A stretch of 64,000 nt of DNA from Bacteroidales bacterium (GTDB taxonomy: Bacteria > Bacteroidota > Bacteroidia > Bacteroidales > VadinHA17), in contig DATALD010000096.1 of NCBI GenBank assembly GCA_036261255.1, positions 1,454 to 65,453 of the forward strand, in the 5' to 3' direction. The notes below the pieces were generated by a model, which was given only the letters and a program-made list of their open reading frames with translations, had not been told where the DNA came from and searched no databases. A program made the translations under genes and the position numbers. Of the stretch, positions 53,705-64,000 are shown piece after piece (position 1 is the stretch's first letter; each line of letters starts with the position of its first letter).

Positions 53705-54871
53705 TTAATTGATTTCCAAAGTTTTTAATCTTTTGTAAGCTTCATTAAGCCTTTCTTCGGTAGCACATAGTGAGATCCTTATATATCTCTGACCATTATC
53801 TCCGAATATAAACCCTGGAGTTATGAAAACATGCACCTTGATAAGGAAATTTTCAATAAAGGTTTCGCACGAAGGGATTTCATCAGGGATCCTTCCCCAC
53901 ATGAACAGACCTGTTTGCTTTATATCATAATCGCATTTAAGCAGATCCATTATCTTCTCAACTATTTTTCTCCTTTTCTCATAGACTGAATTGACTTCAT
54001 CGTACCATGCAGGTGGATTATTCAATGCATTCACGGCTGCAGCCTGTAATCCAAGGAACATCCCTGAATCCATATTGCTTTTCACCTTGAGTATACTGTT
54101 AATGAGCTCATTTTTCCCTGCAACCATACCAATACGCCAGCCGGCCATATTATGTGATTTGCTAAGTGAGTTGAGCTCAAGAGCAACATCCATTGCACCT
54201 TCAGTACAAAGAATGCTTTGATAATCCTTATTCAGAACAAAACTGTATGGATTATCGTTGCAGATAAGGATGCCATGTTTCAATCCGAAATCAACAATTT
54301 TCCTGAAAAGGGCAGGGGATGCCTTAGTTCCGGTAGGCATGTGAGGATAATTCAACCACATCAATTTTACCCGGCTGAGATCAGTCCTCTCAAGAGCTTC
54401 AAAGTCAGGGAACCACCCTTTTTCTTTAACCAGATCGTATTTCTTTATTACCCCACCAACAAGGTTTGTTACAGATGAATATGTAGGATAACCAGGGTCA
54501 GGGACAAGAACCTCATCGCCAGGATTAACATACGCCATGCTTATATGCATTATTCCTTCCTTGCTTCCCATTAGCGGCAGTATTTCTTTTTCGGGATCAA
54601 GAATTACATTGAAATACTTTTTATACCAGTCCGCAAAAGCTTTCCTCAGAGCAGGAGTTCCTTTATAGCTCTGGTAGCCATGAGATCCGGGTTTAGAAGC
54701 CTCCATTGAAAGAGCTTCGATAGTTTCCTTTGAAGGAGGTTGGTCGGGGCTTCCGATACCAAGGTTTATAATATCAGCTCCTTCCTTTCTCATCCTGTCT
54801 ATCTGGGCGAGCTTTGTCGAGAAATAGTATTCCTGGACAAGATTTGTACGGTCAGCGGGTTTAATTATCAT
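53705..54871 (-). CDS. Class I/II PLP-dependent aminotransferase (probably aromatic/prephenate aminotransferase)
   Basis: 388 aa. NLGIGSPD, NPGYPTY-like (PDPGYPTYS), NYPHMPTG and SLSKSHNMAGWRIG (PLP lysine). Sits inside the aromatic operon. Confidence 0.75.
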   Translation of the reverse strand: MIIKPADRTNLVQEYYFSTKLAQIDRMRKEGADIINLGIGSPDQPPSKETIEALSMEASKPGSHGYQSYKGTPALRKAFADWYKKYFNVILDPEKEILPLMGSKEGIMHISMAYVNPGDEVLVPDPGYPTYSSVTNLVGGVIKKYDLVKEKGWFPDFEALERTDLSRVKLMWLNYPHMPTGTKASPALFRKIVDFGLKHGILICNDNPYSFVLNKDYQSILCTEGAMDVALELNSLSKSHNMAGWRIGMVAGKNELINSILKVKSNMDSGMFLGLQAAAVNALNNPPAWYDEVNSVYEKRRKIVEKIMDLLKCDYDIKQTGLFMWGRIPDEIPSCETFIENFLIKVHVFITPGFIFGDNGQRYIRISLCATEERLNEAYKRLKTLEIN

Positions 54872-55694
54872 AGCTCATTTCTCCTTTAAAGTATACTCCT
54901 AAGATTTCAAGATTGCTTGTATGATGTTCAAGTATCCTCCTGATAACTGTTGATTTTGTATCCTTGTCTAGTTCAAGGTCGAGGTAGAACATGTATTCCC
55001 ATTCACCATTGAGCCTGGGAACAGATTGTATTTTTGAGAGGTTGATGTTAAGATTTGAGAGGATCACAAGTACAGCAGCAAGAGAACCTGGCTTATGTCC
55101 GGTTGAAAAACAGATCGATACTTTATTGCCTTTTTTGTTTCCTTTTTGTTCATGGCCCACGACAAGGAATCTTGTGTAATTCTGTTTGTATGTTTCTATT
55201 CCTTCGGCAAGTATTTCGAGATCATAGATTTTTGCTGCCTGCATTGGGGCAATTGCTGCAACTCCCACCAGGTTATTCTCTCGTACCTGCCTGGCGCTGG
55301 CAGCGGTATCTTCGCTTTCAACAAGAGTTTTTCCGGGATGTTCATTCAGAAAAGCCATGCACTGGGCAATAGCAATCGGATGAGATCTTATCTCCCTGAT
55401 ATCTTCCATTTTCTGACCTTTCAGAGCCATCAGGTTCTGCCTGATCCGGAGGTTCTGCTCTCCAAGTATCTTTAATCCCGATTCTCTGATTAATGTATAA
55501 TTATACAGAATGCTGCCTGACCGGGCATTTTCAATTGCCATCACTGCAAAATCAGCTTCACCTTCCTTTACTTTATTAAGAGTAAGATCAAATGTAGGAC
55601 ATGGAACTATCTCAATGTCTTCATCATAAATGAAATACTGCCTAGCTGCAGCTTCGTGAAATGAACCTTTTTCTCCCTGGATAGATACTTTCAT
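54861..55694 (-). CDS. pheA: Prephenate dehydratase
   Basis: 277 aa. IQGEKGSFHEAAA, VMAIENARSGSI, TRFLV and a C-terminal ACT domain (GSLAAVL). Confidence 0.85.
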   Translation of the reverse strand: MKVSIQGEKGSFHEAAARQYFIYDEDIEIVPCPTFDLTLNKVKEGEADFAVMAIENARSGSILYNYTLIRESGLKILGEQNLRIRQNLMALKGQKMEDIREIRSHPIAIAQCMAFLNEHPGKTLVESEDTAASARQVRENNLVGVAAIAPMQAAKIYDLEILAEGIETYKQNYTRFLVVGHEQKGNKKGNKVSICFSTGHKPGSLAAVLVILSNLNINLSKIQSVPRLNGEWEYMFYLDLELDKDTKSTVIRRILEHHTSNLEILGVYFKGEMSYDN

Positions 55695-55706: not shown

Positions 55707-55740
55707 AAAATGAAAAAGGCCCCTTTTTCCGGGGCCTTTG
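55707..55740 (-). terminator. Attenuator terminator upstream of pheA
   Basis: On the minus strand AGGCCCC-GGAAAAA-GGGGCCT (55717-55737) is followed by TTTTTCATTTT. It ends 12 nt before the pheA ATG. Confidence 0.7.
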
Positions 55741-55780
55741 TTTTATTTAATTTTATAATTAACAATATACAATATGCCCC

Positions 55781-55846
55781 TTATCTGTTTTTAAAATAAA
55801 AATAGAAGTAAAAAAAGGTGGCAAATATGTTCTGTGAAATCTTCAT
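55781..55846 (-). CDS. Phe/Tyr-rich leader peptide MKISQNIFATFFYFYFYFKNR
   Basis: The minus strand reads ATG AAG ATT TCA CAG AAC ATA TTT GCC ACC TTT TTT TAC TTC TAT TTT TAT TTT AAA AAC AGA TAA. Six Phe and three Tyr codons fall within 11 positions. GGGGC directly after the stop can pair with GCCCC of the terminator's 5' arm. Confidence 0.65.
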   Translation of the reverse strand: MKISQNIFATFFYFYFYFKNR

Positions 55847-55974: not shown

Positions 55975-56556
55975 TCATTTATGCCTTTTCTTCAACACAT
56001 CTTCGATCTCTTCCATTGTTGTTCCCTTTGCTTTTAGAAGGATTAACAGGTGATATAAAAGATCTGCCGCTTCGTTTTTAAAGAGATCCATGTTATCATC
56101 TTTCGATTCAATGACAAGCTCTACAGCTTCTTCTCCAACCTTTTGTGCAACTTTATTTATCCCTTTTCTGAAGAGTTTGTTGGTATATGAATCACCTGCG
56201 TTGTCTTCAATCCTTTGATTAATAATTTTTTGTAACCTGTATTGAAAACCTTTCGCCGTTTCTTCTTTAAAACATGATGTTGTCCCTTCATGGCATGTTG
56301 GTCCGACAGGGTCGACTTTTATTAAAATTGAATCACTATCGCAATCAGCCATGATTGTTTTAACAAGAAGGAAATTACCAGATGTTTCTCCTTTTGTCCA
56401 CAGCCTGTTCTTGCTGCGACTGAAGAATGTTACTTTGTTTTCCTTTATTGTCTTCTCCAATGCTTCCTCGTTCATATAACCTACCATCAGAACCTGCATT
56501 GTCTCATTGTCCTGGATTACGGCCGGAACAAGTCCTTTACTGAAATCAATTTTCAT
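55975..56556 (-). CDS. hisIE: Bifunctional phosphoribosyl-AMP cyclohydrolase / phosphoribosyl-ATP diphosphatase
   Basis: 193 aa. LVPAVIQD, FFSRSKNRLWTKGETSGN and CHEG (HisI), then a C-terminal EEAVELV...EAADLLYHLLILL (HisE). Confidence 0.9.
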   Translation of the reverse strand: MKIDFSKGLVPAVIQDNETMQVLMVGYMNEEALEKTIKENKVTFFSRSKNRLWTKGETSGNFLLVKTIMADCDSDSILIKVDPVGPTCHEGTTSCFKEETAKGFQYRLQKIINQRIEDNAGDSYTNKLFRKGINKVAQKVGEEAVELVIESKDDNMDLFKNEAADLLYHLLILLKAKGTTMEEIEDVLKKRHK

Positions 56557-60840: not shown

Positions 60841-62116
60841 TGTCTTTTAATCTTATTGTTACTGCGTTGCCGTGTCCTGCCAGCATTTCAGCTTCAGCCA
60901 TAAGCTCAACAACAGGACCAAGTATCTTTATTCCTTCTTCTGTAACTTCCTGGAATGTAATACGTTTTGAAAAACTTTCAGTAGAGACCCCGCTGTAGTT
61001 TCTTGCGTACGCATTCGTTGGGAGGGTATGGTTAGTACCTGATGCATAATCACCAAGGCTCTCGCAGCTGTATTTCCCAAGGAAAACTGAACCTGCATTG
61101 ATGACCCTTAATGCATTCATTTCAGGTTTAGATGTTGCAATTATAAGGTGTTCAGGAGAATACATGTTGCTGAAATCCATGCAATCATCGATAGACGATA
61201 ATAGGATCAGCTTGCTGTTTTCAAGTGATTTTGATATTATATTAAGTCTTGGAAGTTTCCCAGCCTGCTCTTTAACTTCTTCCTTAGTTTTCTCAAGAAG
61301 CGCTTTATCATCCGTAACAAAAATCACCTGGCTGTCGGGACCATGTTCAGCCTGTGAAAGAAGATCGGCAGCAATGAACCCGGGATTTGCTGATTTGTCT
61401 GCAACTATCAGAACCTCGCTGGGACCTGCTGGCATATCGATAGCAACACCTTCCATCTGAACAAGCTGTTTTGCTTTTGTAACATATTGGTTTCCGGGAC
61501 CAAAGATTTTATAAACCCCCGGGACACTTTCTGTTCCATAAGCCATTGCAGCAATAGCCTGAGCGCCACCGATCTTATAAATATCTTGCAATCCTATCAG
61601 TTTTGCAGTGTAAAGTATGAGGGGATTCACAAGACCATCGCGACCAGCAGGAGTACATACAACAATTGTCTCACACCCGGCCATTTTAGCAGGGATGCCG
61701 AGCATTAGGAGAGTTGAGAATAATGGTGCACTGCCCCCCGGAATATAAAGGCCCACTTTTTCAATTGGCTTGCTTTTTCTCCAGCAACGTACTCCTTTTG
61801 ATGTCTCAACTTTTTGTTCGTCGATTATCTGTGAAGCGTGGAATTTCTCAATGTTCTTTCCTGCGAAAATGATAGCTTTTCTTAAATTTTCAGGAACCAG
61901 CTTTTCCGCATCATTTAGTTCCTTTTCACTTACCTTGAAGGATTCAGGAATATATGAGTCAAACTTGTTGCAATAAAACCTAAGAGCTTCATCTTTTTCT
62001 GTCCTAACGCGATAGAGGATGTCCCTTATGGCATCCTCAAGGTATGATTTGCCTATTCCGGGTCGTTCACAAAGATCAGCCCATTTTCCTTTTTCTGGCA
62101 GGAGTATTGTATTCAT
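60827..62116 (-). CDS. hisD: Histidinol dehydrogenase
   Basis: 429 aa. YIPGG.APL, AGPSEVLI..D, QAEH and SPEHL motifs. Confidence 0.92.
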   Translation of the reverse strand: MNTILLPEKGKWADLCERPGIGKSYLEDAIRDILYRVRTEKDEALRFYCNKFDSYIPESFKVSEKELNDAEKLVPENLRKAIIFAGKNIEKFHASQIIDEQKVETSKGVRCWRKSKPIEKVGLYIPGGSAPLFSTLLMLGIPAKMAGCETIVVCTPAGRDGLVNPLILYTAKLIGLQDIYKIGGAQAIAAMAYGTESVPGVYKIFGPGNQYVTKAKQLVQMEGVAIDMPAGPSEVLIVADKSANPGFIAADLLSQAEHGPDSQVIFVTDDKALLEKTKEEVKEQAGKLPRLNIISKSLENSKLILLSSIDDCMDFSNMYSPEHLIIATSKPEMNALRVINAGSVFLGKYSCESLGDYASGTNHTLPTNAYARNYSGVSTESFSKRITFQEVTEEGIKILGPVVELMAEAEMLAGHGNAVTIRLKDIAND

Positions 62117-62973
62117 TACATTATCATTTTTTCAATTGGTATTACAAGGATACCTTCAGCTCCGGCTTTTCTAAGCTGATCGATCCTTTCCCAGAATTCA
62201 TCTTCTTTCACTACTGAGTGCAGGCTGCACCATCCTTCCTGTGCGAGTGGCAGGACAGTTGGACTCTTCATGCCTGGCAGTATTGAACAGATCTTCTCGA
62301 TTGCTGATGTAGGCGCATTGAGGAGAATGTATTTGTTCTCCTTTGCGTTTTTAACTGACCTTATCCTGAAAAGGAGTCTTTCGAGTATTGCCAGCTTTTC
62401 AGCGTCAAGATTCTTATTCCCGATAATAACAGCCTGGCTTTTAAGTATAGTCTCAACTTCATGAAGACCATTTGTGAGCAATGTGCTTCCAGAGCTTACA
62501 ATATCACAAACTGCATCAGCAAGGCCGATTCCGGGAGCAATCTCTACGCTTCCACTTATCTCTTCAATATCTGCTTTAATACCATTCTTCACCAGAAACG
62601 ATGACAGGATATTGGGGTAGCTTGTTGCAATCCTTTTATTCATAAAATATGCAATCCCCGTATACTTGTCTTCTCTTGGAATGGCAAGACTTAGCCTGCA
62701 ATGTGCAAAGCCAAGCTGTTCTATTACATTGACATCCTTTCCGGCTTCAAGCATCATATTTTCTCCGAGTATCCCAATATCGGCTACCTGTTGTTCGACA
62801 TATTGTGGAATATCATCATCCCTGAGAAACAATAGTTCAACAGGGAAATTCCTAGCTTTTGATTTCAGAACTCCTGCGCCATTTGAGAATTTTATCCCGC
62901 ATTCTTCAAGAAGCAGCTTTGAATTATCACTAAGCCTGCCGCTTTTCTGGATTGCAATTTTAAGTTCGCTCAT
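62116..62973 (-). CDS. hisG: ATP phosphoribosyltransferase (long form)
   Basis: 285 aa. LKIAIQKSGRLS, DIVSSGSTL and a C-terminal regulatory domain. 1-nt overlap with hisD. Confidence 0.9.
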   Translation of the reverse strand: MSELKIAIQKSGRLSDNSKLLLEECGIKFSNGAGVLKSKARNFPVELLFLRDDDIPQYVEQQVADIGILGENMMLEAGKDVNVIEQLGFAHCRLSLAIPREDKYTGIAYFMNKRIATSYPNILSSFLVKNGIKADIEEISGSVEIAPGIGLADAVCDIVSSGSTLLTNGLHEVETILKSQAVIIGNKNLDAEKLAILERLLFRIRSVKNAKENKYILLNAPTSAIEKICSILPGMKSPTVLPLAQEGWCSLHSVVKEDEFWERIDQLRKAGAEGILVIPIEKMIM

Positions 62974-62997
62974 TTAATTAATTTTTCATGATGAATT

Positions 62998-63036
62998 AAA
63001 AACAGAAAACCCGTCTGATCTTCTCCGACGGGTCCC
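62998..63036 (-). terminator. Attenuator terminator upstream of hisG
   Basis: On the minus strand ACCCGTC-GGAGAAGATCA-GACGGGT (63009-63033) is followed by TTTTCTGTTTTT. It ends 24 nt before the hisG ATG. Confidence 0.7.
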
Positions 63037-63067
63037 TGATATTAATTTTAAAACACAAAATACCAAA

Positions 63068-63124
63068 TCACCTCGCCTGGGAAACTGGGAAATGATGATG
63101 ATGATGTGTGTTTTTCCTGATCAT
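63068..63124 (-). CDS. hisL: His-codon leader peptide MIRKNTHHHHHFPVSQAR
   Basis: The minus strand reads ATG ATC AGG AAA AAC ACA CAT CAT CAT CAT CAT TTC CCA GTT TCC CAG GCG AGG TGA. Five consecutive His codons. The stop is 31 nt upstream of the terminator. Confidence 0.7.
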   Translation of the reverse strand: MIRKNTHHHHHFPVSQAR

Positions 63125-63225
63125 ACTTTAATATTTAAATGCAAAGAAAACAAAAAAATGTAAAATGAAACAAAAATCAGTAAAAAGATTTAAAATTTTG
63201 TTTAAGAACTTGTTAGTAAAAGCAG

Positions 63226-63340
63226 AATTTCCTTAGGAATTATCCGTGGTTTTATCCATGTAACCCGTGAAAACCGTGGTAAGTAAGAAATGTTTAATTT
63301 CACCACGGACTCCACGGAGTAGACGGTTTTTTCACGGAAA
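63226..63340. repeat. CCGTGG / CCACGG / CACGGA word tract forming a long imperfect inverted repeat downstream of the leuB-like gene
   Basis: The left arm holds CCGTGG (63244), CCCGTGAAAACCGTGGTAA (63264-63282). The right arm holds TCACCACGG (63300), CCACGG (63312) and GACGGTTTTTTCACGG (63322-63337). CCGTGAAAA..CCGT and ACGGTTTT..CACGG are reverse complements. Confidence 0.75.
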
Positions 63341-63361
63341 CATCAAATAATTTATCTGTGA

Positions 63362-64000
63362 TTACAGGTTTTCAGCTACAAGGTCACCAACTTCTGTTGT
63401 TGAGTAACCCATCTTGCCAGCGCCCATGTCTTTCAGCTTTTTGCCTGTAACAAACATCACTGATGCTTCAATAGCTTTTGCAGCTTTCTCCTCACCAAGA
63501 TGTTCAAGCATCATCCCTGCACAGCTAATTGCTGCAAGAGGGTTGATAACATTCTTGCCTGTATACTTCGGAGCAGAACCACCAATAGGTTCGAACATCG
63601 AAACTCCTTTTGGGTTGATGTTTCCGCCTGCTGCAATACCCATCCCGCCCTGAGTCATTGCTCCAAGGTCAGTGATTATGTCACCGAAGAGGTTTGTTGT
63701 TACGATAACATCAAACCATTCCGGGTTTTTGACCATCCACATGCATGTTGCATCAACATGATAATATTCACGCTTGATATCAGGATATTCGGCCTGGCCT
63801 ATTTCATGGAAAGCTCTTTCCCAGAGATCGAAAACGAATGTGAGAACATTTGTTTTACCACAGAGAGCGAGAGTTTTCTTCTTATTTCTTTTTCTTGTAT
63901 AGTCAAAGGCATATCTAAGGCATCTTTCAACCTGCATCCTTGAATATATCATATTCTGGATAGCAACTTCGTCAGGAGTTCCTTTCATCATTATACCACC
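63362..64000 (-). CDS. leuB: Isopropylmalate/tartrate dehydrogenase family protein, probably 3-isopropylmalate dehydrogenase (N-terminus outside the window)
   Basis: The frame is open to the window end. [12 protein letters not shown]...GG.G.A...NINP and [22 protein letters not shown] motifs of the beta-decarboxylating dehydrogenase family. Confidence 0.6.

Follow-up and report, generated by a model that had tools for sequence, protein, structure and literature searches.

A predicted histidine leader-peptide attenuator, with its antiterminator strand at the leader stop codon, upstream of hisG in a soil Bacteroidales bacterium

The window analysed in this work is a 64,000-nt stretch of contig DATALD010000096.1 from a soil Bacteroidales bacterium (assembly GCA_036261255.1), and all coordinates given below are positions in this window. 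The genes hisG, hisD, hisC, bifunctional hisB, hisH, hisA, hisF and hisIE were all identified by NCBIfam equivalog models on the minus strand, where they follow one another in the order hisG-D-C-B-H-A-F-IE down to position 55975; the eight-gene hisGDCBHAF-IE operon proposed in the initial annotation was borne out by these matches. The upstream neighbour of the operon is a partial leuB-like gene. A nested strong hairpin (~63320..63255, minus strand; -33.5 kcal/mol, z = -3.8) is located directly 3' of the leuB-like gene and contains repeated CCGUGG/CCACGG motifs, with UUUU after the inner stem. This hairpin is probably the terminator of the leuB-like gene or a repeat element. A search of RNA-seq runs returned six public runs with this sequence, of which five are DNA metagenomes from soil and the sixth is of an unclassified kind. 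The first gene of the operon and the features that precede it, up to the candidate promoter, are as follows.

62116..62973, minus strand: hisG, first gene of the operon (NCBIfam TIGR00070 at 179 bits, and TIGR03455)
63068..63124, minus strand: leader peptide ORF, MIRKNTHHHHHFPVSQAR followed by UGA (read from the sequence; homologous sORFs in relatives)
63092..63106, minus strand: five consecutive CAU His codons, the putative sensing codons (one CAY x5 match in the window)
63142..63149, minus strand: putative -7 box TTTCTTTG of the promoter, which deviates from TAnnTTTG (76 of 78 aligned leaders have a similarly placed box)
63171..63174, minus strand: candidate -33 element TTTG of a putative Bacteroidota-type promoter (sequence reading)

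The leader ORF is 18 codons in length, reads ATG (63124-63122) ATC AGG AAA AAC ACA (CAT)x5 TTC CCA GTT TCC CAG GCG AGG TGA (63070-63068) and encodes MIRKNTHHHHHFPVSQAR, in agreement with the earlier description of a minus-strand ORF running from 63124 to 63068 with five CAT codons in a row. A run of five CAY codons was found once in the 64-kb window, compared with 0.01 expected from dinucleotide shuffles.

The candidate -33 TTTG is separated by 21 nt from the -7 box that follows it. In the alignment of leaders from species-level relatives described below, the end of a T[A/T]nnTTTG box was located 15-20 nt (mode 18) upstream of the leader ATG in 76 of 78 sequences; the box was a canonical TAnnTTTG in 69 of these and TTnnTTTG in the other seven, which include the window. 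Since this conserved promoter box precedes the leader ATG, the leader appears to be a transcription unit of its own. The predicted transcription start is at ~63136, which would give an A/U-rich 5' UTR of ~12 nt without a Shine-Dalgarno sequence. An imperfect TAnnTTTG box had already been reported in the initial annotation; the box is indeed present, but its place is 63149-63142 and not about 63146-63154. A generic promoter/terminator scan detected neither the candidate promoter nor the terminator of the leader and was set aside, the promoter having been missed because it is of the Bacteroidota type rather than the sigma-70 type, and the terminator because of its 11-nt loop (>8 nt) and an internal mismatch.

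Six RNA elements were delineated between the His codons and the end of the U-run, four of which are numbered as regions 1 to 4.

63087..63096, minus strand: region 1, anti-antiterminator AUCAUUUCCC (MFE of the free leader)
63070..63082, minus strand: region 2, antiterminator 5' strand X, UCCCAGGCGAGGU (constrained folds, comparison of 78 leaders and shuffle control)
63035..63067, minus strand: antiterminator inner hairpin, UUUGGUAUU (63067-63059) with AAUAUCAGG (63043-63035) (folding)
63022..63038, minus strand: region 3, terminator 5' arm CAGGGACCCGUC(GGAGA), common to antiterminator and terminator (folding)
63003..63018, minus strand: region 4, terminator 3' arm UCAGACGGGUUUUCUG (folding; helix 94-96 % paired in the alignments)
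62998..63009, minus strand: U-rich tract UUUUCUGUUUUU, predicted site of attenuated 3' ends (sequence reading)

The GC-rich stem and U-run between the leader ORF and hisG (63038-62998) have the composition of an intrinsic terminator. The core hairpin is made up of ACCCGTC (63033-63027), GGAGAAGATCA and GACGGGT (63015-63009), and is followed by TTTTCTGTTTTT, which ends at 62998. Folding extended the stem to CAGGGACCCGUC/GACGGGUUUUCUG (63038-63003), the folded stem starting at C 63038. The hisG ATG (62973) is found 24 nt beyond the T-run, and the distance from the leader stop codon to this ATG is 94 nt. The sequence supported the hairpin, the T-run and the 24-nt spacing as first described, whereas the 31 nt given for the interval between the TGA and the hairpin applies only if counted from G 63036, the interval to the core stem being 34 nt. 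When the leader region was folded without a ribosome, a structure of -40.8 kcal/mol (z = -3.1) was obtained that contained the 1:2 hairpin and the terminator.

Region 2 consists of the last leader codons and the U of the UGA stop. Its core, CAGGCGAGG (codons Q-A-R), closely resembles the terminator 3' arm UCAGGCGGG in sequence and therefore pairs with the terminator 5' arm. In the full helix, UCCCAGGCGAGGU (63082-63070) is paired with ACCCGUCGGAGA (63033-63022) over 13 pairs with two one-base bulges, and the inner hairpin extends this antiterminator helix and brings regions 2 and 3 together. The mutually exclusive helices that had been sought by eye when the locus was initially annotated were therefore found, with CAGGCGAGG pairing with the terminator 5' arm.

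The effect of ribosome position was modelled by masking the A-site codon plus 9 nt, a footprint size assumed from E. coli, and the cotranscriptional state was modelled on a transcript that stopped short of region 4, the terminator 3' arm. This cut transcript formed the 2:3 helix when the ribosome was at His 9 (-18.2 kcal/mol) or His 11 (-16.9 kcal/mol); with the ribosome at the UGA stop the energy was only -0.8 kcal/mol, because the region 2 strand was covered. The MFE structure of the full-length transcript was the antiterminator (-22.6 kcal/mol) for a stall at His 10/11 and the terminator (-17.7 kcal/mol) for a ribosome at the stop. In the ribosome-free fold, AUCAUUUCCC was paired with GG-C-GAGGUGAU, His codons 10-11 and UUCCC sequestering the antiterminator strand, and the terminator also formed (-36.2 kcal/mol for a transcript from ~63136, the stretch that gave -40.8 kcal/mol being slightly longer). 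In the masked folds, the antiterminator was left free by a His stall but was blocked when the ribosome sat at the stop, and the three modelled states correspond to the classical 1:2 + 3:4, 2:3 and 3:4 arrangements. We consider it likely that the antiterminator is the helix between UCCCAGGCGAGGU and the terminator 5' arm, together with the inner hairpin.

Conservation among close relatives was investigated by a HisG scan limited to one genome per species, which yielded 80 loci with hisG 78-90 % identical. These were from Bacteroidales/Bacteroidota MAGs, except for two with evidently mislabelled bins. The two (L002 and L044) carry a Bacteroidales-type hisG and the same leader in MAGs labelled Chloroflexota and Methanobacterium, and are probably binning contaminants in public records. 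In 79 of the 80 relatives, the same place was occupied by a leader ORF that has three or more His codons, the exception being L071, which has H-Q-H. The His run was also found upstream of hisG in 55 of 80 distant metagenomic loci (see below), and its conservation ahead of orthologous hisG genes, which the initial annotation had put forward as a check, was thereby confirmed. The terminator was present in the leaders of all species-level relatives, and the consensus of their leader peptides was M.YK.SHHHFHTCFQAR(R) followed by the stop.

Leaders from 78 of the species-level relatives were aligned (alignment A1), and all 78 contained three to six His codons. The best-conserved stretches in A1 were the RNA segments CAGGCGAGG, ACCCGUCUGA and UCAGGCGGGU, not the peptide. 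The CAGGCGAGG core was almost invariant across the 78 leaders and was kept in five loci in which the ORF ends two codons earlier (L053, L061, L062, L073 and L074); since it is retained where it is untranslated, this segment is conserved as RNA.

For a cut transcript with a His stall, the antiterminator was the predicted MFE structure in 76 of the 78 relatives, whilst a ribosome at the stop gave the terminator in 77 and the absence of a ribosome gave the terminator in all 78. As a control, the nucleotides separating the stalled ribosome from the terminator were subjected to dinucleotide shuffling. Upstream pairing of 7 nt or more of the terminator 5' arm was found in 100 % of native compared with 31 % of shuffled sequences, and the mean energies were -18.5 and -10.2 kcal/mol, respectively. 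In A1, the terminator was 95.5 % paired and the antiterminator 94.3 % (outer helix 95.2 %, inner helix 93.2 %), compared with 35-50 % when the partner was slid by 1-3 columns. The equivalent of the inner helix, AUGAUAU/AUAUCAU, was 93 % paired in the 78 leaders, with G-U pairs and a few compensatory changes. Covariation among the close relatives was weak and almost absent, because the helix segments barely vary.

RNAalifold, when applied to the alignment of 78 leaders, returned the terminator only and no alternative helix, and the alternative helices were therefore tested explicitly. At equilibrium with a stalled ribosome, the terminator was favoured over the antiterminator in 95 % of relatives, from which it follows that the switch must be kinetic. 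The sequence of the region 1:2 pairing in the window was not conserved in the relatives. These can form as an alternative a small CUUGCU/GGCGAG hairpin (90 % paired, without covariation and absent from the window), which is a possible counterpart of the region 1:2 pairing. A helix between the His codons (CACAU-C-AUCAU) and AUGAUAUGUG was rejected as the 1:2 pairing of the relatives; this candidate was 80 % paired, its outer two pairs were mostly unpaired, and all measures were at or below the shuffled level.

A further box, such as UGCUCAGAC, was observed 15-25 nt upstream of the hisG ATG in 23 of 79 relatives (L005, L009-L012, L021, L022, L025, L038, L039, L042, L043, L050, L060, L066, L068, L070 and others), the window being without it. 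Over 7-12 nt, this downstream box is perfectly complementary to the terminator 5' arm and loop (GUCUGAGCA), shuffled tails giving complements of 5 nt or less, and it changes along with the loop in L039, L060 and L070. Judging by this complementarity, the box may be a third partner of the terminator 5' arm in read-through transcripts, with a putative role in hisG translation or transcript stability.

When HisG was compared with a set of 5.8 billion proteins, only relatives that were at least 82 % identical were among the matches listed, and no diversity was added by this search for that reason. A distant set was assembled by searching HisG against a representative library at 50 % identity, making a distant alignment from the matches and scanning metagenome contigs. 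The set comprised 80 metagenomic loci with 52-65 % identity to the distant query, and a His-rich sORF was present upstream of hisG in 55 of them. Several classes could be distinguished.

Window type: peptide ending in HHHHFHTCSQAR before the stop
Peptide ending in AQAR: terminator ACCCGUUUGA/UCAAACGGGU, antiterminator strand UCAAGCGAGG
Peptide ending in HHHHFLPNG: terminator GGCUUACC/GGUAGGCC, antiterminator strand GGGUAGGCU across the UAG stop
Variant of the HHHHFLPNG class: terminator arm GUAAGCCC, antiterminator strand GGGUAAGCC, UAA stop
Peptide ending in PNE: antiterminator strand CGGUGGGC just after the stop, CGGUAAGCC in the terminator

The strand and the terminator matched each other within the individual classes, GGGUAGGCU with GGUAGGCC, GGGUAAGCC with GUAAGCCC, and CGGUGGGC with CGGUAAGCC. 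A terminator could be recognised in 51 distant leaders, for which pairing was analysed automatically. Under a His stall, 42 of these had 70 % or more of the terminator 5' arm paired upstream, compared with four when the ribosome was at the stop, and the antiterminator strand was located at approximately -17 to +13 nt from the stop codon in most of the 51.

A joint alignment was made of 50 leaders of the window and AQAR types. The antiterminator pair formed by columns 37/93 was GC in 34 leaders, AU in nine and GU in four, and the same terminator position with its 3' partner was CG in 34, UA in 14 and UG in two; this covariation indicates that the antiterminator strand tracks the terminator across lineages. 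On sequence grounds, such tracking is the strongest argument for a functional pairing. Double changes in the wider alignment were found at three pairs of the terminator helix and at one antiterminator pair only, and those at columns 37/93 may have arisen from few evolutionary events.

In several classes of distant leader, the TTTG of the presumed -7 box ended 7-8 nt upstream of the leader ATG (leaders with such a close box were L086, L091, L096, L116, L122, L126, L128, L137, L142 and L145). Given this spacing, leaderless or nearly leaderless translation would be possible.

The Rfam scan of the whole 64 kb on both strands identified no family at its gathering score. RF00514 (His_leader) gave 19.9 bits (E = 1.3) compared with its gathering score of 49, which does not support membership of this family. 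In the region 62500-63500, there was no T-box match at E <= 10, and RF01692 (Bacteroid-trp) was absent from the matches at the same threshold. The earlier term 'hisL-type' attenuation is hence apt for the mechanism, given the conserved His run and the competing helix, but not for the family, RF00514 being below its gathering score. The Bacteroid-trp motif has reportedly been interpreted as a probable attenuator whose leader peptide contains Trp codons. Like the leader studied here, it is a Bacteroidetes cis-regulatory leader before an amino-acid biosynthesis operon, although the amino acid, the sequence and the operon are different.

The hisL leaders of E. coli and Salmonella resemble the present leader in having a His-codon ORF before hisG, an intrinsic terminator and mutually exclusive helices that are chosen by ribosome position, and super-attenuation without translation is predicted for both. 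Apart from the CAU run and a terminator of generic type, however, no homology between the two can be detected. The hisL ORF possesses seven His codons compared with five here, and the present leader is without a Shine-Dalgarno sequence. The enteric his leader follows a six-segment A-F scheme, whereas the present leader has four competing segments and an inner hairpin, and its antiterminator strand overlaps the stop codon. In its 1:2, 2:3, 3:4 logic the leader is similar to E. coli trpL, in which the terminating ribosome likewise masks segment 2, the terminator is likewise stabler than the antiterminator and the choice is likewise kinetic. The stop codon of trpL, however, precedes segment 2, which is reached by the footprint only, whereas here segment 2 is formed by the last three codons.

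Bacteroidetes/Chlorobi are said to have been named by Vitreschak et al. in 2004 among the groups with predicted attenuators. Within the same phylum and upstream of the same genes, hisG and pheA (the latter preceded by a candidate leader at 55846..55713 in the window), conserved 5' elements with leader-peptide clues have been described in Flavobacteriaceae, where they had no Rfam match (Guerin et al., 2021; PMC9723704). In contrast to the present work, these reports did not propose an explicit antiterminator for the Bacteroidales family studied here, and the flavobacterial-like metagenomic leaders (ACCCGUUUGA/UCAAACGGGU with UCAAGCGAGG) are unlike the window in sequence. Several sORFs of B. thetaiotaomicron are reminiscent of leader peptides (Ryan et al., 2020; PMC7366714), and the Bacteroid-trp cis-regulatory motif (RF01692) was reported by Weinberg et al. 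(2010; PMC2864571). Bacteroidota his leaders were not covered by Naville & Gautheret (2010) or by Brewer et al. (2021). On the basis of the earlier reports on leaders of this phylum and of the enteric his and trp mechanism, leaders of this kind are known and had already been anticipated in Bacteroidota, and existing knowledge of attenuation as a mechanism is unchanged. The present work adds an explicit model for the leaders of this Bacteroidales family, and with it the rule that the antiterminator is embedded at the stop codon.

What was computed directly comprises the sequence elements, how well they are conserved and their potential to pair in the three modelled states. On the evidence of the modelled folds, the feature is very likely to be a ribosome-mediated leader-peptide attenuator that senses charged tRNA-His. 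From these data we infer the promoter, the translation of the sORF, the limits of the ribosome footprint, the kinetic competition and the response in vivo, and the mechanism would operate as follows. Transcription would start ~12 nt upstream of the 18-codon ORF, which is without a Shine-Dalgarno sequence, and read-through into hisGDCBHAF-IE would be controlled by four competing RNA segments, with region 1 in or just after the His codons, region 2 at the stop and regions 3 and 4 as the terminator arms, the last of these acting with the U-run. When His is plentiful, the ribosome would reach the UGA and cover region 2, allowing 3:4 pairing and termination at ~63000. When His is scarce, the ribosome would stall on the CAU run and cover region 1, leaving region 2 free. 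The 2:3 helix and inner hairpin (~-17 kcal/mol) would in that case have formed before region 4 is made, the terminator would not form and the operon would be transcribed. If the leader is not translated, 1:2 pairing would allow the terminator to form. We know of no demonstration of ribosome-RNA polymerase coupling in Bacteroidota.

The leader ORF could also work via Rho, with ribosome release at the UGA exposing the RNA, or via hisG translation or mRNA stability, the hairpin and U-run not being the regulated step. Such a mechanism is compatible with the equilibrium folds of the full-length transcripts, in which the terminator prevails in most relatives irrespective of stalling, and the downstream box of 23 of the 79 relatives hints at a post-termination layer. 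The window itself is without this box, however, at least 4-5 U are conserved directly after the hairpin, which is a hallmark of intrinsic termination, and the 94 nt between the leader stop and the hisG ATG are too many for reinitiation coupling, making this explanation very improbable.

An even smaller probability is assigned to the segment from CAGGCGAGG to the terminator being bound by a factor that acts in trans, whether a protein (an antiterminator or a helper of termination) or, as in a T-box, uncharged tRNA, in which case the His ORF would be secondary. Such a site would be in keeping with the near invariance of the segment in 78 relatives, which goes beyond the needs of pairing, and with the weak covariation among close relatives. 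Against this, no T-box or other Rfam family was detected at E <= 10 and none at its gathering score in the window, and the His codon run is conserved in all classes. Moreover, the segment in the distant leaders is entirely different in sequence and yet always matches its own terminator, which fits RNA-RNA pairing rather than a common protein site. A chance association, with the hairpin a plain terminator of the leuB-like gene or an insulator and the sORF either untranslated or coding for a peptide with its own function, is more improbable still, given that the upstream gene has its own strong hairpin (~63320-63255), that a conserved promoter box separates this gene from the sORF, that the His run occurs in 79 of 80 relatives and in independent classes, always before hisG, and that the peptide varies outside the His run, conservation being partly at the RNA level.

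Attenuation by the ribosome that translates the leader peptide is accordingly the reading that we prefer for this locus. There is about an even chance that his leaders of Bacteroidota form an uncurated set that extends throughout the phylum, includes the present leader and has at least three to four classes, and that in this set a copy of the terminator 3' arm is placed at or near the stop codon and the terminating ribosome acts as the anti-antiterminator.

A candidate second leader-peptide attenuator was observed at 55846..55713 (minus strand), upstream of pheA (54861..55694). Its Phe/Tyr-rich sORF (55846..55781) encodes MKISQNIFATFFYFYFYFKNR, and GGGGC (55780-55776), which mimics the terminator 3' arm, is found directly after the UAA stop. 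The terminator is AAAGGCCCC-GGAAAAA-GGGGCCUUUUU (~55738-55713). The ribosome-free structure has the ORF segment GCCACCUU paired with AAGGGGC, together with the terminator (z = -3.0). As modelled, the putative pheA leader is of the same design as the his leader.

Gene regulation in Bacteroidales has been little studied, and the leader described here is without an Rfam family. The analysis provides a concrete model, including the coordinates of all competing segments, of how soil Bacteroidales may switch His biosynthesis. The leader alignment could be used to seed a covariance model, which would guard such sORFs from neglect or miscalling. The pheA leader and the many distant hisG leaders suggest that classical attenuation is common in Bacteroidota, and its commonness bears on transcription-translation coupling in the phylum. 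If the mechanism holds true in vivo, the pioneer ribosome would keep up with RNA polymerase in a phylum whose translation initiation does not rely on Shine-Dalgarno pairing, and in some classes translation of the leader may begin on nearly leaderless transcripts.
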